From: Dehalococcoidia bacterium
Lineage (GTDB): Bacteria; Chloroflexota; Dehalococcoidia; GIF9; UBA5629
DNA length: 64,000 bases
Direction of reading: 5' to 3'
NCBI GenBank assembly: GCA_050011565.1
Contig: JBEKIW010000001.1
Location: 320,001 to 384,000, forward strand
How positions within the stretch are numbered: the first letter of the stretch is position 1; each line of letters opens with the position of its first letter. The notes below the pieces were generated by a model that had not been told where the DNA came from, searched no databases, and was given only the letters and a program-made list of their open reading frames with translations. Shown piece by piece: positions 23,927 through 35,442 of this stretch. Made by a program: the position numbers and the translations under genes.

Positions 23927-26900
23927 TTGGAAATGGACTTATCCCGTCTTCTTTCTTTAATCGAAAAAGTCCCGGCGTATCAACGGCTTAAAGGCGAGCT
24001 ATCGGGGTCTCCGGAGAAAGCGATTAAGCTGGTAGCGGCTGATGCGGTGAGGCCATTCCTTATAGCTGCCCTCCACCGGGAATTAAACTTACCCATTTTG
24101 GTGGTAGCCGCTCAACCGGAGAATGCGAAGCGGCTCTATGACGAGCTTCAGGCCTGGTGTCCCGATTTAAAATTTCTACACTTTTTCCAAGAAACTGACT
24201 TTTTGTTGGATAAATACTCCTCGACTGATGTCACCACCACTGCTGAACGACTGAAGACTCTCTCGGCCTTAACTTTTTGCCGTGACATGTCGGCAGACGA
24301 ACGCCGTCCATTAATTATTAGTTCCGCTTTAGCTGCTGTAGGTAGAACTGTGCCTCGGGATAAATTCCAGGCGTCCTGTCATTCATTGAAGGTTGGAATG
24401 AATATAGAGCTGTTACAGCTAGCGGCAAAATGGCAGGATATAGGGTACGAATTTAATAATATTGTTGAGATGCCGGGAACAGTAAGCCGACGGGGAGGTA
24501 TACTTGATATTTTTTCTCCAAATAATGAGTTGCCCGCCAGAATAGAGTTCGTGGGTAACCGGATAGAGAGCATCAGGTTTTTTAATCCGAAGACACAGCG
24601 GTCATTGGAGCTAGCAAACTCAGTGAACATAGTTCCGGCTCGGGAAAGCCAGCAATATATTACCGGAGACACTATTGTCGATTACCTGACCGAAAAGGCG
24701 CTTCTAATTACAGACGACCTCGACGAGCTCAAAACTGTGGTGAACAAGCTGCACAGCGAGGCTGAAGAGATTGAAATGAATTCGGAGCCAGCGGAACCAG
24801 CGGGTTTGCCTATTCTGTCCTGGCCGGAATTTGAAATAAAAACAAACATAGTCAAGAAACGCCTGATGCTTTTTTCCTGGAATACCGATTACCCGGACAA
24901 AGTCGGTCTTCAGTCTTTGCCTCTGGCGCCGGTGCCGAGCTATGGAGGCAGACTTGAAGCCTTCTCCGAAGGGCTTAAAGAGATGCTGCAGGAAAACCGG
25001 CGCATCGTCGTAGTCAGCCAGCAAACGAATCGTCTGGCCGAACTGCTGCAGGAATGGGATATCATAGCCGGTTCAGTTTCACAGATAGAGCAGTTGCCTC
25101 CGTTGAAATCGATTACTCTGGTCCACGGCTCGCTGGCTGAAGGCTGGGTAATGAAAGATGTCCTGACAATGTTCACTGATAATGAGATTTTTGGGTTCGT
25201 AAAGAAACGACGCTTATCCGGCAAAAGATCGGTGCGCTACCACCTGTTTGTTCCGGAACTGACACCCGGTGACTTCGTAGTCCACATCGAGCACGGTATT
25301 GCCAGGTTCGCCGGTTTGACGAAGATGGTTACCGAGGGCGTTGAGCGGGAGTATCTTGTCCTGGAATATGCTGCCGGTGACAGATTGTATGTACCTACCG
25401 ACCAGGTTGACTGTGTCAGCCGCTATGTTGGCGCGAGTGACCAAACACCGACCTTAAGCCGATTGGGAACCCAGGAATGGGCACGCACCAAACAGAGAAT
25501 TAAAGAGTCCGTGGCTAACATAGCCCGTGAGCTTTTAGGTTTGTATGCTGCGAGAGAGGTAATTCCGGGCTTTGCTTTCTCCTCTGATACTCTGTGGCAG
25601 CAGGAACTGGAGTCATCTTTCCCTTATATGGAAACCTCTGACCAGTTGGAGGCGGTTTTGGCCGTGAAGGATGATATGGAGAAGCCAAAGCCAATGGACC
25701 GCCTCGTCTGCGGAGATGTGGGTTATGGAAAGACCGAGGTGGCTCTCCGGGCTGCCTTTAAAGCGGTGATGGACGGCAAGCAGGTGGCCTTCCTCGTGCC
25801 AACGACGGTGTTGGCACAACAACACTTTGCTACCTTCCGAGAAAGGCTCCAAGCTTTTCCTGTCAGAGTCGAAATGTTGAGCCGATTCCGCACCGAGAAA
25901 GAACAGGCCGACATAGTAAAGGGCATGGAAGCCGGCATTGTGGATATCTGCATCGGTACCCACCGTTTGCTGCAAAAAGACATAGTGTTTAAAGACCTGG
26001 GGCTCGTAATCATAGATGAAGAGCAACGTTTTGGAGTGGCACACAAGGAGCACTTTAAGAAGCTGAGAAGGGAGATAGACGTCCTCACCCTTAGCGCCAC
26101 GCCCATTCCTCGCACACTGCACATGTCACTGGCTGGAATAAAGGACATGAGCACAATTGAAACCCCTCCGGAAGAGCGTTTGCCAATTAAGACCTTCGTC
26201 GGCGCTTATGATGACAGGCTGGTGCGTGAAGCGGTACTGCGTGAGATTGAACGGAACGGTCAGGTGTTTTTCGTTCATAACCGTGTTTATAGTATTGCCA
26301 TGGTTGCCGGCAGGCTAAGTAGTTTGGTCCCGGAAGGCAGAATATCGGTAGCTCACGGTCGAATGCCTGAAGAGGAACTAGAGAAGGTGATGGTGGACTT
26401 TATCGACCACAAAACCGATATTCTGGTTACTACCACCATTATTGAATCCGGCCTCGATATACCGAATGTCAATACACTTATTGTTGACCATGCAGACAGG
26501 TTAGGTTTGACGCAGCTTTATCAGTTGCGAGGCCGTGTCGGGCGCGGCAGCAGCAACGCCTGCGCTTATTTCTTTTACGACAGAGGCAAGCAATTGACAC
26601 CTGAGGCTCGGAAGCGTCTAAAGACTATCTCCGAGGCGACCGAGCTCGGCGCCGGATTTGCTGTGGCGATGAAGGACCTGGAGATTCGAGGAGCCGGCAA
26701 TCTGCTGGGTGTGGAACAGAGCGGCTATATAGCTGCGGTAGGCTTTGACCTGTACAGCCGGCTGTTGAATGAGGCGGTCGAAGAGCTAAAACAAGGGAGA
26801 GCTTTAGAGGAGGAGAAGAAGATTCTACATCCTTCAGTTACAGCCGTGGGTCTGCCTTTGGCTGCTTTTATTCCAGAAGAATATATACCTGACCTGAGCA

Positions 26901-27271
26901 CAAGACTAAATTCCTATCAGCGCTTGGCAGTGGTCAAACGGGCAGAGGACATAGAAGTTATAGCTAGGGAACTGAGTGATAGATTTGGGCCAGCGCCGGA
27001 AGAGGTCGAAAATCTTCTCTATATAGTAGAAATCAAGCAACTGGCAACTGAGGCGATGCTGGAATCTATCTCAACAGAAAACAAGCAGGTCGTTCTGCAT
27101 TTCAACAGCGGCAGAGATTTAAACAAATTGTCTTTAGCACAGGATGTTCAATCCGGTATAAAGATAGGCAGTGACCGGATTAAACTTGACATAAAGATAC
27201 TGGGCAACAGCTGGCAGGAAGTGCTCAGGGAAGTGCTTCAACATCTGTTATCAGTGTCCACCGGGGGATGA
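23927..27271 (+). CDS. mfd: Transcription-repair coupling factor
   Basis: RRGGILDIF, VVHIEHGIARF, GDVGYGKTEVA, DEEQRFG, SATPIPR, QLRGRVGR, TRCF C-terminus. Confidence 0.98.
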   Translation: MEMDLSRLLSLIEKVPAYQRLKGELSGSPEKAIKLVAADAVRPFLIAALHRELNLPILVVAAQPENAKRLYDELQAWCPDLKFLHFFQETDFLLDKYSSTDVTTTAERLKTLSALTFCRDMSADERRPLIISSALAAVGRTVPRDKFQASCHSLKVGMNIELLQLAAKWQDIGYEFNNIVEMPGTVSRRGGILDIFSPNNELPARIEFVGNRIESIRFFNPKTQRSLELANSVNIVPARESQQYITGDTIVDYLTEKALLITDDLDELKTVVNKLHSEAEEIEMNSEPAEPAGLPILSWPEFEIKTNIVKKRLMLFSWNTDYPDKVGLQSLPLAPVPSYGGRLEAFSEGLKEMLQENRRIVVVSQQTNRLAELLQEWDIIAGSVSQIEQLPPLKSITLVHGSLAEGWVMKDVLTMFTDNEIFGFVKKRRLSGKRSVRYHLFVPELTPGDFVVHIEHGIARFAGLTKMVTEGVEREYLVLEYAAGDRLYVPTDQVDCVSRYVGASDQTPTLSRLGTQEWARTKQRIKESVANIARELLGLYAAREVIPGFAFSSDTLWQQELESSFPYMETSDQLEAVLAVKDDMEKPKPMDRLVCGDVGYGKTEVALRAAFKAVMDGKQVAFLVPTTVLAQQHFATFRERLQAFPVRVEMLSRFRTEKEQADIVKGMEAGIVDICIGTHRLLQKDIVFKDLGLVIIDEEQRFGVAHKEHFKKLRREIDVLTLSATPIPRTLHMSLAGIKDMSTIETPPEERLPIKTFVGAYDDRLVREAVLREIERNGQVFFVHNRVYSIAMVAGRLSSLVPEGRISVAHGRMPEEELEKVMVDFIDHKTDILVTTTIIESGLDIPNVNTLIVDHADRLGLTQLYQLRGRVGRGSSNACAYFFYDRGKQLTPEARKRLKTISEATELGAGFAVAMKDLEIRGAGNLLGVEQSGYIAAVGFDLYSRLLNEAVEELKQGRALEEEKKILHPSVTAVGLPLAAFIPEEYIPDLSTRLNSYQRLAVVKRAEDIEVIARELSDRFGPAPEEVENLLYIVEIKQLATEAMLESISTENKQVVLHFNSGRDLNKLSLAQDVQSGIKIGSDRIKLDIKILGNSWQEVLREVLQHLLSVSTGG

Positions 27272-27283
27272 GTAGGTCAAGAA

Positions 27284-27541
27284 TTAACCTTCTATGCCGT
27301 AGTCGTGCAGGCAGTCAATGAGGTCTTGAACGGTAACGATTTTCTCGATATCTTCGTCTGATATTTCCAGCTTGCGTTTCGGTGTGCTGAATTCCTGTTC
27401 TAATGCGGTGATGAACTCTGCCAGGTCGGAGGCGTCGATATTCAAGTCGTCGACAAAAGATGCCGAGGGCACTATTAATTCCTCATCAACGCCGAGTTGG
27501 TCGGCGATCATTTTCTTGAGCTTTTCCGAAATGTCTGTCAT
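27284..27541 (-). CDS. acpP: Acyl carrier protein-like, lacking the canonical DSL serine
   Basis: ACP pattern (QLGVDE..ASFVDDL..EISDED.EKI.TV) but DAS instead of DSL. Confidence 0.8.
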   Translation of the reverse strand: MTDISEKLKKMIADQLGVDEELIVPSASFVDDLNIDASDLAEFITALEQEFSTPKRKLEISDEDIEKIVTVQDLIDCLHDYGIEG

Positions 27542-27558
27542 CCGTTTCCTCTAAGCAT

Positions 27559-28011
27559 CTAGGCCGGCTCAGCGTTTTCAGTCCCTTCTCGTTGTTTCCC
27601 TTGCTGTATATAAGCGGTGACTACCGAGCCCAAAACCCCATTGACAAACTTTTGAGAGGTATCGCTACCAAAACTTTTTGCCAGTTCAACGGCTTCATTA
27701 ATAGCTGCTTTTACTGGGACTCTATTATCGAATAAAACCTCAAAAATGGCAAGGCGGAGAATATTCCTATCTATAGGCGCTATCTGGTTGACGGGAAAAG
27801 CCGGGGCGAACCTCCGGATAACATCATCGATATTTTTTTTATTTTGCTGGACTCCGTTGACGAGGCTTCTGGCGAAATCGGCCGCTTCATCGGGCAGGGC
27901 TTTTTCGTGTAGCAAACGGGCCAGGGCCGCATTCGGTTGATGAGCCGAACAGTCCAGCTCGTAAAGCGTCTGTAGAGCAACGGTTCTAGCTTTCCTTCTA
28001 ACTCCAACCAT
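27559..28011 (-). CDS. nusB: Transcription antitermination factor NusB
   Basis: RRKAR..ALQ.LY, DRNILRLA, INEAVELAK.FG, FVNGVL. Confidence 0.96.
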   Translation of the reverse strand: MVGVRRKARTVALQTLYELDCSAHQPNAALARLLHEKALPDEAADFARSLVNGVQQNKKNIDDVIRRFAPAFPVNQIAPIDRNILRLAIFEVLFDNRVPVKAAINEAVELAKSFGSDTSQKFVNGVLGSVVTAYIQQGKQREGTENAEPA

Positions 28012-28039
28012 TTTGACAACCATTTTTAAGCAAACCAAT

Positions 28040-28206
28040 ATTTCCTAACTATGCACGGTGCCATCCGGCTCCTTTTTGCTACTCCTACACACACCCTCCG
28101 CGTGCTTGAGTGAAGTTGCTGGCAAGTCAGCCATGAGGAACTCGTGGTGGAAGGCAAAAAGAGCGCGAGATATGTTCGTGTCTAAAGAGGCAATAAATTA
28201 GGAGAT
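28040..28206 (-). ncRNA. Candidate long-hairpin RNA (6S-like) between fabD and nusB
   Basis: Complementary ends (CUCCUAA/UUAGGAA), inner stem GCUCUUUUUGC/GCAAAAAGGAGC, unpaired GACACGAACAU segment. Confidence 0.3.
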
Positions 28207-28242
28207 GCCGGAGGCCTCTGCCTTCGAGCAGGTGCGCGGCGA

Positions 28243-29187
28243 TTATCCTCTGCGCCATTTTGTTATTTCGCTGACGGTTTGAGCACTGCTGATATTAAAG
28301 GATTGTGCTCCGGGGCTAATGCGTTTGATTAACTTGGTCAGCATCTCGCCAGGTCCCATCTCGAAGAAGGTGGTTACGCCTCGAGCGATCATATTTTCGA
28401 CAGATTGCTGCCATTGGACAGGGCGTACAATCTGGCTAACCAGCTCCTCCTTTATCGCTTCCAAGTCAGTAAGGGGCTGGGCAGTAACATTAGCCACAAC
28501 CGGCACAGTTGGCTTATTAAAAGTAAACTCCGAGATGGCATTTCTCAGCCTTTCTATGGCCGGCTCCATCAATATGGAATTGAAAGGCCCGTTTACCCTA
28601 AGCGGGATAATGCGGCGAGCGCCCTTTATTTGGGCTAATCTCCGGGCTTTAGTCAGGCTTTCCTGTGTACCGCTGACAGTGACCTGGTCTGGAGCGTCGA
28701 TATAGGCAATCTCGACACCGGTGGAAAAGCAGATGTTCTTGAAGACCTCTATATCCAAGCCGGTCATAGATACCATGCCGCCACCCGTTCTTTGCCCGGC
28801 TTCGTTCATTAATCTACCTCTTTCACGAATCAATCGTGCGGCATCAGATAAGCTAAGGACGCCAGCAGCTACCAGAGCTGCATAAGTACCTACGTCATGG
28901 CCGGCAACAAAGGTGGGCTCCGGTATACCGTTGTTACTGACCTCCTGAGCTGCTCTCAGGCAGGCGACACTGGTAGCCAGAAGTGCCGGCTGGACATTGC
29001 CGGTCTGCTTGAGGTCGTCTTGAGGTCCTTCAAAGCATAAGCGAGATAACGAGAAGCCCAGATTTTTGTCAACTTCATCAAAAACTTCACGGGCCGAAGT
29101 GTAGTGGACGTAAAGGTCCAACCCCATGCCTACAGAGTGGGATTCCTGTCCTGGAAAAATGTAAGCTACTTTTATTGCTTCTACCAT
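28243..29187 (-). CDS. fabD: Malonyl-CoA:ACP transacylase homologue with substituted catalytic residues
   Basis: FPGQ, QPALL, PVQW..SV, EMGPG retained; GHDVG replaces GHSxG and PFNS replaces AFHS. Confidence 0.85.
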   Translation of the reverse strand: MVEAIKVAYIFPGQESHSVGMGLDLYVHYTSAREVFDEVDKNLGFSLSRLCFEGPQDDLKQTGNVQPALLATSVACLRAAQEVSNNGIPEPTFVAGHDVGTYAALVAAGVLSLSDAARLIRERGRLMNEAGQRTGGGMVSMTGLDIEVFKNICFSTGVEIAYIDAPDQVTVSGTQESLTKARRLAQIKGARRIIPLRVNGPFNSILMEPAIERLRNAISEFTFNKPTVPVVANVTAQPLTDLEAIKEELVSQIVRPVQWQQSVENMIARGVTTFFEMGPGEMLTKLIKRISPGAQSFNISSAQTVSEITKWRRG

Positions 29188-29285
29188 GAATCCTCCTTCT
29201 CATTCAAGCTCGCCGAGAGGTCGACTTTTTCCCTGAGTTTCACTGTTCCAGCGGCTTTCCAACATGGTTATGTCTTTCAAGCTAA

Positions 29286-29489
29286 TTATGGCTTGCCGGG
29301 TGTTTTCTTCGCGGTCTTAATCTCAACTACTTCCCTGCCTGCATAGGTACCGCAGGTTGGACAGGCATGATGAGGTAACTTGGGAGTGTGACACTGGGGG
29401 CAATCCACCAATATAGGCACGCTCAAAGCCAGGTGACTCCGTCTTTTACCTTGCCTTGCCTTGGCATATTTTCTTTTTGGTAAAGCCAT
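29286..29489 (-). CDS. rpmF: 50S ribosomal protein L32 (zinc-ribbon form)
   Basis: MALPKRK..RRSH..CPQC..PHHACPTCG. Confidence 0.96.
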   Translation of the reverse strand: MALPKRKYAKARQGKRRSHLALSVPILVDCPQCHTPKLPHHACPTCGTYAGREVVEIKTAKKTPGKP

Positions 29490-29999
29490 TTAGTTTTTAT
29501 TCTCCTTCCCCAGACCGATTAGTTTCGACCAGCGTTGGTCTTTGACACTTGAGGGGCACTGACAGGGCTCACGGTTAAGGTCATGCCCACACGTTGGGCA
29601 AATGCCAGCGCAATCTAAACGACAAAGTGGCTTGGCAGGCACAGCAAGCAATGCATATTGGCGTATTGCTTCGCTTAGATCCAGCGTATGGTCCTCATCA
29701 ATATTAAGGTTATCATATTGACCCGCTGAAGATAAACCCTCTGGTGCGGGTACATCAGGAAGAGCTTCCTCTTCAAAGTCATATTGTACGTCACAATCAA
29801 TCGTTTTCAGGCACCGACTGCAAATTCCCTTTACTGAGGCTGTGATTTTGCCTCTGACTATGATGCCGCGATTGGTGCGAATTAATATGACATCCCCATT
29901 GACGAAATTTATGTCGTCCGTATCCACAGGCTCGTCAATATGGTAACTACGGCTTGAGCCAATCGGTTCTTTCAGTAATTGGGCAACGTTGATGCTCAT
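29490..29999 (-). CDS. yceD: DUF177/YceD family protein
   Basis: CSRCL, PLC..DCAGICP.CG..LN, DQRW; upstream of rpmF. Confidence 0.92.
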   Translation of the reverse strand: MSINVAQLLKEPIGSSRSYHIDEPVDTDDINFVNGDVILIRTNRGIIVRGKITASVKGICSRCLKTIDCDVQYDFEEEALPDVPAPEGLSSAGQYDNLNIDEDHTLDLSEAIRQYALLAVPAKPLCRLDCAGICPTCGHDLNREPCQCPSSVKDQRWSKLIGLGKENKN

Positions 30000-30128
30000 T
30001 TTTTCTACAGACATTGTGAGGTTAATTATAAGTTGAGATATATTTGAAGTCAAGCTAATGCATTGTCGGCAGATATTCCCTTTTGGACGATTGAATGACG
30101 GTGAAATATATCTTGTTATTGGAGTATA

Positions 30129-31346
30129 ATGGCTAATCGTGGGGTAGATTCAACAGTGGCAAATAAAGCTTTGACAAAGGCGGAACTTAAAGCTGAGATA
30201 TGCCGGCGAGTAGAGGAGCAGCGCCAGGCGCTTATTGAGTTAAGTCTCAATATCCATGATAACCCGGAACTGGGTTTCACAGAGGAAAAGGCGTCAGGCT
30301 GGCTGACCGGCTATCTGGCTAAAAATAATTTTCAGATAGAAAAAGGGATTGGGGGTTTGCCTACGGCTTTCAAAGCAGCCTATGGTAACAGCAAACCTGC
30401 CATTGCCTTGCTCGCCGAATATGATGCTCTACCTGAAATCGGACACGCCTGCGGTCACAATATAATCGCTGCTTCCGCGGCAGGAGCTGCTGTAGCCAGC
30501 AAATTAATCGTGGACAATTTCGGTGGGACAGTTTTTGTTTTTGGAACACCGGCGGAGGAGCTTTTTGGTGGTAAGGTGCCAATGTTGCAGGCTGGAGTTT
30601 TTAATGGGGTGGATGTAGCTATGATAGTACACCCGGGGGTGCTGGACACCGCGATGAGCGAAGGCTTGGCGTGCATTGGCTTAGATGTTCAATTTTTTGG
30701 CAAGGCAGCCCATGCTGCCGCCTATCCCGAGCGGGGAATAAACGCGCTCGAGGCTATGATTTTGGCATTTAACGCTGTAAATTCACTACGCCAGCATATT
30801 AAAGATAGGGCCCGGATTCACGGTATAATAACTCACGGTGGCGAGGCGGCTAATGTGGTGCCCGCGCACTCAGCGGCTACATTTTTTGTTCGCGCTCAGG
30901 ATAATATCTATCTTGATGAGTTAAAACAAAAGGTACTAAAATGCTTCGAAGGGGCAGCGCTGGCTACGGGGGCACGATTGGACTATAAATGGGCCGACAT
31001 AGTCTACGCCCCTATGAAGAACAACTTAGTCTTAGCGCAGCTATTTGCCCAGAATCTGGAATCTCTAGGCCGCAAGGTAGCATCATTAGAACCCTATTTC
31101 GGTTTCGGCAGCACAGATATGGGTAATATCAGCCAGGTCATACCTGCTATTCATCCTTCCGTTGCCATTGTTTCTCCGAATGTGCAGTTACATTCTGAAG
31201 ACTTTGTCCTAGCTGCTGCCTCGGAGCCAGGACATAAAGGGCTTTTAGATTCGGCTAAAGCTCTGGCGATGACGGTTGCTGACCTGCTCGGTGAACCTGA
31301 AAATCTGGTCAGAGTAAAGGATGAATTCTCCAGGCGACCGCATTAG
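30129..31346 (+). CDS. M20-family amidohydrolase (ACY1L2/AbgB-like)
   Basis: HDNPELGFTE, AEYDAL, GHACGHN, GTPAEE, GSTDMGN. Confidence 0.92.
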   Translation: MANRGVDSTVANKALTKAELKAEICRRVEEQRQALIELSLNIHDNPELGFTEEKASGWLTGYLAKNNFQIEKGIGGLPTAFKAAYGNSKPAIALLAEYDALPEIGHACGHNIIAASAAGAAVASKLIVDNFGGTVFVFGTPAEELFGGKVPMLQAGVFNGVDVAMIVHPGVLDTAMSEGLACIGLDVQFFGKAAHAAAYPERGINALEAMILAFNAVNSLRQHIKDRARIHGIITHGGEAANVVPAHSAATFFVRAQDNIYLDELKQKVLKCFEGAALATGARLDYKWADIVYAPMKNNLVLAQLFAQNLESLGRKVASLEPYFGFGSTDMGNISQVIPAIHPSVAIVSPNVQLHSEDFVLAAASEPGHKGLLDSAKALAMTVADLLGEPENLVRVKDEFSRRPH

Positions 31347-31541
31347 AAAATATGTTTTAAGCCTTGGCCTGCAAGTGATTATTTAATAACGCTTGGCAAA
31401 ATTTTTTAGAGTTGGAGCTTGTGGCACCTTTGTTGTATCGGGCAAAAATTCTGGAAAAATTATAAAATAAGGGCCACAGTTTGTATTTTGTGCCATAGGT
31501 AAATTATTGAACAAAACCTGGCTATAGACGGAGGATAGAGA

Positions 31542-32000
31542 ATGAAGGTTATTTTTCTGAAAGATGTACCCAAGGGCAAGAGGGGGGAGATAAAAGAGGT
31601 AGCTGACGGTTATGCCAGAAACTTTCTTTTTCCAAAAGGCATGGCTTTGCCAGCCACGCCATCGGCTACAAAAGAAGCTAAACTGCTATTAGATAAGAAG
31701 GTAGAGCATCAGACGCGGCAGCAAGAGGAGCAAAGTAAAGTAGCTCAGGAACTTGAGGGCAAAGAGCTGCAGTTCAAGGCTAAAGCAGGCGCTAAAGGTC
31801 GCCTTCACGGTGCTATTACCAGCGCTAATATAGCTGAAGAACTTTCTCGAGTTACCGGCTTGGAGATTGATAAGAAAAGAGTCGAGATGGACGAGCCATT
31901 GCATCAACTTGGGGACTATGAGATAGTAATTAACCTGGGCACGGGGTCCGTAGCGAAAATAAAGGTAATCATCGAGGAAGAAACCGCTCCAAATGATTAG
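31542..32000 (+). CDS. rplI: 50S ribosomal protein L9
   Basis: [29 protein letters not shown]. Confidence 0.97.
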
Positions 32001-33363
32001 CGATAATTTGCCCCCGCATGATATTGAAGCTGAAAAAGCAGTGCTTGGCTCTATGCTTATTGACAGCGAGGGCATATTCAAAATTGCTACTTTCCTGGCG
32101 CCGGAGGACTTCTTCAATCTGGAAAATCAGTTGGTTTACGAGGCCTGTTTCAACCTGTATCAGCGTAATGAGGGCATAAATCAAATAACCGTAGCCCGTG
32201 AATTAATTCAGAAGGAAAGGTTGGAAGAGGTTGGAGGAGCTGCTTATCTGAGCCACCTGGTTTCTACGGTACCCACCTCTCTCCATATCGAGTATTATGC
32301 ACAGATAGTATCCAGACTGGCTATAATGAGGCGGCTTATAAGCGCCGGCAGTCAAATTACTGCTCTTGGCTATGAAGCTGATGCCGAGGTTGATGTTGCG
32401 CTCAGCAGGGCAGAGGACGTCCTGTTTAAGGTAAGGCAGAGACGGAGTCGCCAGGATTTTGTACTTATTCGTCAGGTTCTGGGCCAGTATTTTGAAGAAG
32501 CCGGACCGACCCAGACCAGAGAAGAAGCTATTCCGCATGTGCTTACCTACTTCACGGCTGTAGACGATATATTAGGTGGCTTGCAGCGTTCCGACCTGAT
32601 TGTTCTGGGCGCCAGACCAAGTGCCGGCAAGACCAGCCTGGCTCTGAATATCGCCCGAAATACGGCCATTAACCAGAAAGCCTGTGTTGCCCTATTTAGC
32701 CTGGAAATGTCCCGGCAGGCGGTCGTCCAACGTCTTCTGTCAAATGAGGCCAATGTAGATTCCAAGAGCGTACGCTTGGGGCTTTATACGGAGAAGGAAG
32801 AGAGAAGGATTATGGAAGCCAGCGGCATCCTTTCTGAAGTGCCCATCTACATTGACGATTCGCCCCAGATGAGAGTAGTGGAGATGCGGAGCAAGGCGAA
32901 GCGACTTAATTTTGAGCGCACAGTCGACCTGGTTATCGTTGACTATCTACAGCTGATACAGGGAGCAGCTAGAAGCGAGAGTAGGGTACAGGAATTGAGC
33001 GAGATAACGCGCTCGCTGAAGGCGCTGGCTCGTGAGATAGAGGCACCGGTACTGGCTATTTCGCAGCTTAGCCGTGCCGTCGAATGGCGAGCATCTCACA
33101 AACCACAGCTGTCAGACCTGAGAGACAGCGGCAGCATCGAACAAGATGCCGATGTGGTTATGTTCATCTCGCGTGATGAAATGTATTTCACCGAAGACGA
33201 ATGGAAGAAAGCTCATGATATTGAAGTTGAACCTTATCCCAGGGGTATTGCCGACGTAATCATCGCCAAGCATCGTAATGGCCCGACCGGTGAGGTTAAA
33301 CTGCATTTTATTACCAAAACGGCCAAATTCGAAGACCTGGAGACTGAGTTGAGTGCGACCTAA
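31993..33363 (+). CDS. dnaB: Replicative DNA helicase
   Basis: [49 protein letters not shown]. Confidence 0.98.
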
Positions 33364-33383: not shown

Positions 33384-34106
33384 ATGAGTGAGACAGTGTT
33401 TTCCGGCTTCCCCTCCAGAGCTGAGGTTACTCCCATACCTAATCTGTTCTTCACTGCAGTTATGCCGCGGATTAGTGGCGTGGCCGAGCTTAAGACAGTA
33501 TTGCATATTTTCTGGCTACTCAGCCGCCGCCGCGGCTACCCGCAGTTTGTAACCTGTGCTGAACTATTAGCTGACCCTATACTTATGGGTGGCATAGAGG
33601 CGGTAGGCGAGCCAAAAGAGGAAGTGCTTCGTGAAGCGCTTCGACAAACTGTGCAGCATGGCATAATGATGCATGTCAGAATTGATAGGGAAGGGCAGCC
33701 TGAAGACGCCTATTTTGTTAATAACGATGCTGGGAGAGACGCGGTCAGTAAAATTGAGCAAGGCGAGCTTCCGTCTCTGGTTTTAGCACCCCGGAAAGGT
33801 GAGGAAGCGGAAATTAAGCCGCTACCAAACATTTTCAGCCTTTATGAACAAAACATTGGAATGCTTAGGCCATTGATTGCCGAACAACTTCAGGAGGCGG
33901 AGAGACTTTATCCGGCAGATTGGATCGAGAGCGCTTTTAAGGAGGCTGCGGCTTTAAATAAGCGTAGCTGGAAGTACGTTCTTCGTATTTTAGAACGGTG
34001 GTCTATCGAAGGTAAAGATGATGGAAAGTTTAGGAGAGATACTGAAAAAGAGAGCGACCGGGAAAAGTACATCAGGGGCAAGTACGGACACATGGTTAAA
34101 GGGTGA
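33384..34106 (+). CDS. DnaD-domain replication protein
   Basis: IFSLYEQNIG..W..AF.EA...N.RSWKYV.RILERW; between dnaB and the loader ATPase. Confidence 0.85.
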   Translation: MSETVFSGFPSRAEVTPIPNLFFTAVMPRISGVAELKTVLHIFWLLSRRRGYPQFVTCAELLADPILMGGIEAVGEPKEEVLREALRQTVQHGIMMHVRIDREGQPEDAYFVNNDAGRDAVSKIEQGELPSLVLAPRKGEEAEIKPLPNIFSLYEQNIGMLRPLIAEQLQEAERLYPADWIESAFKEAAALNKRSWKYVLRILERWSIEGKDDGKFRRDTEKESDREKYIRGKYGHMVKG

Positions 34107-35442
34107 ATCAGGAGCTAACAGCTCACCTGATTCGACTTGCCCGATATGTAAAGGAGCTGGCTTCATACATCCTTTATCGGCTTCGGGGCAGCCTGATTTC
34201 AGTCGAGTTGTTCCGTGCCAGTGCAGCCGGCAGGGATTGAAAAAGGAGAAACTGAGTCAGCTTCAACAATTCAGTAACCTTGGCGCTCTATCCCGGCTAA
34301 GTTTTGACAACCTCATACCGACCGGCAGATACGAAGATGCCGCGTTACAGCAGAATTTCACGAAAGCCTACGAAGCTGCCAAGGCTTTTGCCAATGAGCC
34401 GAAGGGGTGGTTGATTTTAGTTGGCCCGAACGGTTGTGGAAAAACGCATCTAGCCTGTGCCATCGCCAATTACCGGCTAAGTCTGGGTCAGCCCGCTTTT
34501 TATATAGGTGCCGCTGACCTGCTGGACCATCTCCGGAGCGCTTTCAGCCCCAGCAGTGAAATTGCTTATGACGAACTGTTCGAGCGGGTTAGAAATGCGC
34601 CGCTTTTAATCCTGGATGATTTGACCATGACGGCTACCACTGCCTGGGCTAAAGGAAAATTGGAACAGTTGCTGGATTATCGTTTCAATATGCGCTTACC
34701 TGCAGTTATCACCACCGATACGCCGATTGAAGAGTTTGACGAGAGTTTGCGAGGTCATCTGGCAGATTCTGAAATATGCAGTATATATGTAATCCGTGGA
34801 AAATCGACGTTGATTCTGGAGCATCTGGGCAGTATAGAGTTGGAGGCGTTACGCCAAAAAGCCTTCAATAATTTTGACTATAAGCTCTCGAATCTGTCAC
34901 CTGAGGAGCGCCAGAGCCTGGAGCAGGCCTACCGGAATGCCGTCAATTTTGCTAAATCCCCGGAAGGCTGGTTAGTTTTTATGGGTGTCAACGGTTGCGG
35001 CAAAACACATCTGGCGGCCGCCGTTGCTAACTATCTGCGCCGGGAGAGTAAATCAGTACTGTTCATCGTGGTTACCGACCTCCTCGATTATTTGCGTTCC
35101 ACTTTTAACCCGGAGAGCAGAGTTACCTACGACGAGCTCTTCGAGAAAATTAAGAAGGCCCCGGTGCTTATTCTGGATGATTTTGGTGAGCAGTCAGCGA
35201 CGCCGTGGGCTCAGGAAAAGCTCTATCAGCTAATAAACTATCGTTATAATGCCAGATTAGCCACTGTAATTACTACCTGCCTGTCACTGGATGAGATTGA
35301 AAGCCGCATAAGCTCCCGTATGGTTGACCCCAGCCTCAGCCTGGTCTTGAGAATCAATGCCCCCGATTATCGGGGTGATATAAAAGCCCCACGAGCTCGT
35401 GAAACCAAGTCCCAGCAACGATACCCGCGGCGAAATCGCTAG
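34018..35442 (+). CDS. DnaC/IstB-like helicase-loader ATPase with two tandem AAA domains
   Basis: CPICKG..PCQC Zn motif; two Walker A (GPNGCGKT, GVNGCGKT) and two Walker B (LILDD). Confidence 0.88.
   Translation: MMESLGEILKKRATGKSTSGASTDTWLKGESGANSSPDSTCPICKGAGFIHPLSASGQPDFSRVVPCQCSRQGLKKEKLSQLQQFSNLGALSRLSFDNLIPTGRYEDAALQQNFTKAYEAAKAFANEPKGWLILVGPNGCGKTHLACAIANYRLSLGQPAFYIGAADLLDHLRSAFSPSSEIAYDELFERVRNAPLLILDDLTMTATTAWAKGKLEQLLDYRFNMRLPAVITTDTPIEEFDESLRGHLADSEICSIYVIRGKSTLILEHLGSIELEALRQKAFNNFDYKLSNLSPEERQSLEQAYRNAVNFAKSPEGWLVFMGVNGCGKTHLAAAVANYLRRESKSVLFIVVTDLLDYLRSTFNPESRVTYDELFEKIKKAPVLILDDFGEQSATPWAQEKLYQLINYRYNARLATVITTCLSLDEIESRISSRMVDPSLSLVLRINAPDYRGDIKAPRARETKSQQRYPRRNR

Follow-up and report, generated by a model that had tools for sequence, protein, structure and literature searches.

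A FabD without its catalytic residues and an acyl carrier protein without its serine, kept under purifying selection in Dehalococcoidia: a probable non-catalytic pair

The window analysed here is a stretch of 64,000 nucleotides from a Dehalococcoidia bacterium (Chloroflexota; assembly GCA_050011565.1, contig JBEKIW010000001.1, positions 320,001 to 384,000). It encodes a homologue of FabD and an acyl carrier protein (ACP), termed here pseudo-FabD and ACP1, both with altered active-site motifs (Table 1). Minus-strand gene order is yceD, rpmF, fabD, a radical-SAM remnant, nusB and the ACP gene, and yceD is likely the first gene of an operon with rpmF, fabD, nusB and the ACP gene. The fabD and ACP open reading frames are full length and each has a purine-rich ribosome-binding site, as a first-pass annotation of this DNA had noted for FabD. 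The ACP gene, described there as a neighbour of fabD, is not adjacent to it; nusB and the radical-SAM remnant intervene. The same annotation reported plsX and fabH missing from the cluster. This stands for the cluster itself and for fabH, as no canonical FabH was found in the genome, but plsX is present elsewhere.

Table 1. Features of the locus, and two lipid genes from elsewhere in the source genome
Feature	Position	Strand	Basis or remark
Pseudo-FabD, 314 aa	28243..29187	-	PF00698 E 6e-35; TIGR00128 287.5 bits vs cut-off 260.9
Basic helix and loop, ferredoxin-like subdomain, residues 178-193	28609..28656	-	Candidate binding surface
Serine-less ACP (ACP1), 85 aa	27284..27541	-	PF00550 E 5e-10; AcpP alignment
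nusB, between fabD and ACP genes	27559..28020	-	PF01029 E 4e-35
Radical-SAM gene, decayed 3′ remnant	28072..28239	-	tblastn 48% over 56 codons, in-frame stop, E 1.6e-10
rpmF, ribosomal protein bL32	29286..29489	-	PF01783 E 2e-22
yceD (DUF177)	29490..30053	-	PF02620 E 9e-26
PlsX	L105:9912-10907 (G000 C2:215911-216909)		
PlsC	L107:7970-8746		

In an alignment with E. coli FabD (residue numbering after the Misson preprint), the nucleophile S92 is replaced by D98 (codon 28894-28896) and the catalytic H201 by N203 (codon 28579-28581). Other changes are G12 to E15, L93 to V, N160 to Y162 and N162 to D164. Every motif substitution named by the first-pass annotation (Ser to Asp, His to Asn, PGQESH, AYID) is present. 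Chance, sequencing error and a change private to this genome are excluded because each change consists of one or two nucleotide substitutions and is common to relatives. Retained residues are Q11 (Q14), H91, R117 (R123), Q166 and Q250. The Arg117 carboxylate clamp and Gln11 are thus in place, but the pantetheine groove (N160/N162/Q166/V280) reads Y/D/Q/M and is not that of E. coli FabD. An AlphaFold2 model (pLDDT 82.6, pTM 0.75) predicts the two-subdomain FabD fold, with 6U0J as the closest structure (TM score 0.81), and ESM Atlas matches were to FabD clusters only.

ACP1 aligns with E. coli AcpP (E 3e-15) ungapped over the motif. S36 is A37 (codon 27431-27433) and L37 is S38, so that DAS replaces DSL; D35, D38, E41 and the acidic helix II are kept. 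The protein scores 40 bits with PF00550 (cut-off 20.8) and falls under the TIGR00517 cut-off (61.2 vs 70.45). The alanine followed one residue later by a serine was correctly read in the first pass for the source genome. In the clade of the source genome, however, this +1 serine is kept in only 11/20 ACPs and is P, E or A in 9/20, and in a second clade with inactivated FabD the position is D or N in 7/7; the shifted serine is rejected as a cofactor site that characterizes the clade. AcpS recognition depends on D35, E41 and E47/48 (10.1101/2025.01.28.635281). These residues are largely retained in ACP1, so that loading would be blocked by the absence of both the serine and the enzyme. Judged from its sequence, ACP1 cannot hold an acyl chain at the canonical site. 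Lacking the defining catalytic features, pseudo-FabD and ACP1 should not be filed as active parts of type II fatty-acid synthesis (FAS II).

The substitutions are widely shared. Among the top 120 protein homologues (68-99% identity), 87 have Asp at the nucleophile position, 27 have Gly and 6 have Ser, the serine being gone in 114/120; at the His position 78 have Asn, 31 have Tyr and 11 have His. Public sources give homologues the name ACP S-malonyltransferase. One homologue, P0077 (80% identical), is labelled Bathyarchaeia by its source, which is probably a binning error. A survey of the order covered 61 genomes with a FabD match in 60, and 58 were scored; the three not scored are G015 (no match, 67% complete) and, because their genes are partial, G028 and G044. 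The serine of the nusB-linked FabD is gone in 28 genomes (dead copies) and present in 30. FabF status was assigned by hand for each genome from family-search results: all 30 genomes with an intact copy have FabF, while those with a dead copy comprise 11 with FabF and a second, intact-motif FabD and 17 with neither. An example of the second cluster reads acp-fabF-acpS-fabK-fabD-plsX-fabF. Intact FAS II clusters of relatives (L058, L056, L166) are themselves atypical, with two FabF genes, FabK or FabL, and up to four ACPs. AcpS or another phosphopantetheinyl transferase (PPTase) was not found in 15/17 FabF-less genomes. In the other two (G002, G005) AcpS lies in an acyl-CoA-ligase cluster unrelated to FAS, where it and a divergent ACP stand beside acyl-CoA ligase and kinase/phosphotransacylase-like genes (L220:5673-8633, L221). 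Beyond the order, inspection covered the 11 top-scoring loci from a search of 301 genomes of the class, and 11/11 are intact.

Nei-Gojobori dN/dS ratios (nonsynonymous over synonymous rates) between the source genome and 14 relatives, for which many dS values are saturated, are 0.022-0.072 for FabD (13 computable) and 0.013-0.188 for the ACP (14). Those of neighbouring genes are 0.069-0.199 for NusB, 0.040-0.095 for bL32 (13) and 0.133-0.316 for YceD (12). FabD dN is lower than that of NusB in 14/14 comparisons and no higher than that of bL32 in 9/13. In ten two-copy genomes, the dead copies resemble each other more closely than the active second copies do in 45/45 pairs (mean 82% vs 67%), and dN/dS for the closest pair is 0.032 (dead) vs 0.147 (active), with the reservation that the genome pairs are not independent and second copies may have other histories. 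The radical-SAM remnant next door, 56 codons with a stop, is an internal control for true decay. FabD and ACP1 are under strong purifying selection, and simple decay with dN/dS near 1 is rejected. Together with the sharing of the substitutions and the poor retention of the +1 serine, this agrees with the proposal of the first-pass annotation that the two form a repurposed pseudoenzyme and apo-carrier.

It is scarcely credible that the pair is a slowly decaying relic, or a still-active FabD whose partner carries the cofactor on the shifted serine. Passage of the TIGR00128 cut-off, the public name and the +1 serine of the source ACP would fit such a state. The low FabD dN/dS (0.02-0.07) beside a truly decayed gene, the variable residue at the +1 position in both clades, and the failure to find a PPTase here or in most FabF-less genomes do not.

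The source assembly (G000; 2.0 Mb, 99.2% complete) has one FabD-family gene and one ACP in the whole genome, both inside the window. In a whole-genome search the FabF/FabB ketosynthase was not found, the family matches being weak and all in thiolases, and FabF proteins of four relatives gave one 33-residue match (E 0.007). PF01648 (PPTase/AcpS) had no match in the genome (controls 10/14), nor did tblastn with AcpS of two relatives. Two PF08541 matches, in place of a canonical FabH, are 475-480 aa DUF35-fused proteins beside thiolases. A search for FabZ/FabA matched none of five genomes, three of them FabF-bearing; the relatives with intact FAS II clusters have HadAB-like MaoC pairs or an enoyl-CoA hydratase instead of FabZ. 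The first-pass idea that this lineage has dropped FAS II therefore agrees with the source genome, where neither FabF nor AcpS was found, but does not explain the pair, because 11/28 dead-copy genomes keep an intact FabD together with FabF.

Lipid genes found in the source genome are FakA, four DegV, five PlsY matches, PlsX, one PlsC, GpsA and CdsA. Since FakAB, PlsY, PlsX, PlsC, GpsA and CdsA are retained, it is likely that the cell scavenges fatty acids and builds bacterial ester lipids from them by way of acyl-phosphate. Archaeal-type ether lipids, which the first pass had considered, find no support: PcrB/GGGP (geranylgeranylglyceryl phosphate) synthase (PF01884) gave no match over the cut-off in a search that did not extend to DGGGP (digeranylgeranylglyceryl phosphate) synthase or glycerol-1-phosphate dehydrogenase, and the candidate for archaeal CarS is CdsA. 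The gene set resembles that of FakAB-PlsY-PlsX-PlsC scavenging in Firmicutes, all of whose genes are found here. That route passes acyl groups through holo-ACP (PMC11586512), whereas holo-ACP cannot form in the source genome, and the acyl donor for PlsX/PlsC may here be acyl-CoA or acyl-phosphate. CoA-based fatty-acid synthesis has been described for archaea (10.1101/2024.07.05.601840). The source cell may also use CoA-based synthesis, as thiolase, DUF35, short-chain dehydrogenase (SDR), MaoC and hydratase genes are present, although beta-oxidation fits equally. Two HMG-CoA-synthase-like DUF35 fusions lie with thiolases (L277:7753-10427, L278:7653-10295), and there are also a run of thiolase-DUF35-hydratase-SDR-acyl-CoA dehydrogenase genes and a MaoC pair with an SDR (L281:5105-9531, L280:5747-7943); these genes may serve beta-oxidation or CoA-based chain elongation. 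Three adjacent NMO/FabK-like flavoprotein genes occur at L279:3926-7227 (G000 C3), with more elsewhere, and the best FabK-like match tested is under the TIGR03151 cut-off.

The pair could be a lipid-handling adaptor or sensor, using the dead pocket to bind malonyl-CoA, acyl-CoA or acyl-phosphate, or docking on the Fak/PlsY/PlsX/PlsC route to tune it. R117 is present in 120/120 homologues and Q11, H91, Q250 and R190 in 28/28 dead copies, the genes of the route are in the genome, and PlsX is found in 12/13 genomes of the genus even though many are without holo-ACP. However, each lineage has its own replacements in the pantetheine groove, G12 is E or D in 26/28 dead copies, which puts a negative charge at the pocket entrance, and the second dead clade keeps the pair without PlsX (0/6) and mostly without PlsC (1/6). 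The adaptor is accordingly unlikely, though worth keeping in mind, and PlsX and PlsC are rejected as obligate partners. The six genomes are G014, G020, G025, G026, G027 and G035, all FabF-less, with no PlsX match in six and no PlsC match in five. They have 5-10 PlsY matches each, and three are 97-98% complete; perhaps their PlsY paralogues allow both acylations to proceed from acyl-phosphate.

A conserved candidate surface sets apart the FabDs that are linked to nusB in three families, 38 proteins of which 28 are dead and 10 intact. When these were compared with 32 others, nineteen positions were at least 90% conserved in the former and under 50% in the latter. The sharpest are V27, H28, R133, K180, R183, Q186, S251, F275, S291, G293, W311 and R312; V27, H28, R133, R183, G293 and W311 are present in 38/38 nusB-linked copies vs 0-19% of the others. 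The net charge of residues 178-193 is +6 or +7 in 28/28 dead copies. Its mean is +5.2 for intact copies with the signature, +2.8 for second copies (12) and +3.2 for orthologues from two other families (20). The AlphaFold2 model places a helix at residues 175-187, which would present an exposed basic surface on the FabD fold. Because the intact signature copies already carry it, this candidate surface appears from the alignments to be older than the catalytic loss. ACP1 (E < 1e-20) is found in 34/36 family genomes vs 8/18 of the family without the FabD signature, the ten genomes without it in the latter being mostly of one genus.

The residues of the FabD-ACP interface are those of the E. coli complex (10.1101/2020.05.15.098798). 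In the source clade the pantetheine groove is lost (N160 to Y, H or F and N162 to D or G, each 21/21; V280 in 1/21), and the basic ACP-contact residues are retained (K189 as R, R190, K286 and R287, 21/21). G283 is K or R in 27/28 dead copies, which might compensate for a weakened interface.

A tree of 70 FabD proteins with four motif blocks masked requires three changes for the serine-less state, and a single change occurs in 0/200 bootstrap trees. The approximately unbiased (AU) test rejects a single serine-less clade narrowly (p 0.04), and two or three losses are therefore the safe reading of the tree. Both of the larger dead lineages repeat the changes G12 to E, S92 to G, H201 to Y and G283 to K. 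Ser36 is gone in 27/27 nusB-linked ACPs of these lineages, in 1/10 ACPs beside an intact signature FabD and in 0/10 in other families; L37 is already gone in 8/10 of those beside an intact signature FabD. The FabD and ACP losses are correlated but separable and not simultaneous: they are not locked together because G016 has an intact FabD and a serine-less ACP1, with extra canonical ACPs, and G040 a dead FabD and an ACP that retains the serine. The FabD of G034 (L064:4851-5798), sister to the second dead clade, has Ser and His intact and G12 changed to E, in a genome with a second copy; it is possibly an intermediate of inactivation.

The codons are compatible with single steps AGY to GGY to GAY and CAY to TAY to AAY. 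GHDxG is the motif of epoxide hydrolases and dehalogenases, and Asp98 could act at the nucleophile elbow as in Asp-nucleophile hydrolases, or the acidic pocket could bind a metal. Asp occurs in 87/114 serine-less homologues, and E15, D98 and D164 cluster near H97 and R123. Yet 27/114 have Gly at this position, as do the other two lineages, the residue at the His position may be N, Y, S or H, and the codon series fits drift. New catalysis is thus very improbable, and an Asp-nucleophile hydrolase is disfavoured.

A non-catalytic role of the dead pair, reached by way of the surface first and the loss afterwards, is very probable. The pattern best fits a moonlighting protein that was no longer needed as an enzyme, because catalysis is lost only where it is not needed while the gene stays. 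The nusB-linked FabD of three families has the conserved extra surface, basic helix included, already in copies that are still catalytically intact. Next, a further ACP and FAS cluster arises and the nusB-linked ACP drifts off the DSL motif. Two or three losses of FabD catalysis follow, confined to genomes with a second FabD or without FabF, and the gene is kept. The basic helix might bind a polyanion, be it rRNA or the acidic apo-like ACP, or each of them by turns. If human MCAT and mitochondrial ACP are a guide, an immature ribosomal subunit might be the target.

Chaperoning of rRNA or of ribosome assembly is put forward tentatively, at less than even odds, as the likeliest single job. The reasons are the basic helix, a conservation like that of ribosomal proteins, the precedent of MCAT, and the fact that the pair depends on none of the lipid genes tested. 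The company of yceD, rpmF and nusB has been counted for it as well. Several points weigh against the non-catalytic pair and its ribosomal target. The operon position says little because it is inherited, intact orthologues also lying by nusB. The ACP contact K279 is acidic in 28/28 dead copies, R287 is lost in 4/7 copies of the other two dead lineages and ACP L37 is gone, all of which weaken the canonical FabD-ACP interface. Pseudo-FabD as a whole is near neutral (K+R 31, D+E 33), and R117, Q11, H91 and Q250 in all dead copies fit a ligand pocket too. Plain ancestry of the clade may account for part of the signature, in a comparison whose other members align poorly at the C-terminus and whose genomes are kin and not independent. 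We know of no bacterial FabD that acts on ribosomes.

Human MCAT binds 12S rRNA at h31/h42 in assembly intermediates of the mitochondrial small subunit (PMC9892005). It resembles pseudo-FabD as a FabD homologue with a non-enzymatic job (PDB 8CSP; phmmer E 3e-36, TM 0.77), and is no closer to it than other FabDs are. MCAT differs in keeping its enzyme role, and rRNA binding is shown there and only proposed here. The stronger claim of a cofactor-free FabD-ACP ribosome-assembly factor that repeatedly shed catalysis, a bacterial counterpart of the roles of MCAT and mitochondrial ACP (entries named mt-SAF32 in PDB) in the mitoribosome, is somewhat doubtful. If true, an ordinary bacterial FabD would have a hidden second job, and the same cells would build ester phospholipids without any holo-ACP.

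The selection and retention data also fit another housekeeping partner (SMC, Rel, NusB/RNA polymerase or Fe-S machinery) or a self-associating scaffold, with the apo-like ACP as acidic adaptor. D38 is kept in 26/27 and E41 in 27/27 serine-less ACPs of the two larger clades. E. coli AcpP has such partners, and apo-AcpP activates MukB as well as holo-AcpP does, no cofactor being needed (PMC8602292). ACP1 shares with these moonlighting ACPs, AcpP on MukB and mitochondrial ACP, the use of ACP as an acidic binding subunit, but the known ones keep Ser36 and the FAS role, and here the copy is dedicated and serine-less. The locus has no co-occurring gene for a partner, its radical-SAM gene being lost here, and E. 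coli IscS binding needs Ser36 (PMC13343975); IscS is disfavoured for that reason. Such a partner is unlikely overall.

Compared with bacterial FabD (PF00698, TIGR00128; E. coli 1MLA, 2G2Z, 6U0J), pseudo-FabD has the same fold, 37% identity, R117/Q11/H91/Q250, the basic contacts 189/190/286/287 and the position after yceD-rpmF. It differs in the absence of Ser92 and His201, in changed N160/N162/V280, in K279 to E, in the extra basic helix and YVHY/WRRG signature, and in a genome without detected FabF or AcpS. ACP1 has the length, acidic helix II and D35/D38/E41 of type II AcpP (PF00550, TIGR00517), and its orthologue in sister families is the canonical ACP linked to nusB, but it differs in S36 to A (P or G in relatives) and the loss of L37. 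A published description of such a pair was not found in the literature searched, most subscription journals lying outside its coverage.

FabD and ACP are usually treated as single-purpose, essential parts of FAS II, and databases name these copies active enzymes; metabolic models that count them as FAS II are wrong. If a second function was separated from catalysis two or three times, these copies are natural separation-of-function alleles with a short list of residues for mutation, and FabD/ACP moonlighting and the old genomic link between fab and yceD-rpmF-nusB become directly testable. There also seem to be near-complete bacterial genomes in which glycerol-3-phosphate ester lipids are made without holo-ACP, and some of these have neither PlsX nor PlsC.

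An Rfam scan of positions 26000-32000 gave no match at E up to 1. The radical-SAM remnant is AmmeMemoRadiSam-like; in many relatives the gene is intact and separates fabD from nusB, in others it is lost, and it is rejected as an obligate partner of the pair because only a decayed remnant is left here. The convergent ORF 23927-27271, presumably mfd, ends 12 bases from the end of the ACP gene (27271-27284), which leaves no space for a terminator, and this arrangement recurs in many family genomes. On the plus strand (33384-35442), downstream of the replicative helicase gene 31993-33363, is a DnaD-like gene followed by one whose product of 474 aa contains two ATPase stretches of DnaC/IstB-like type.

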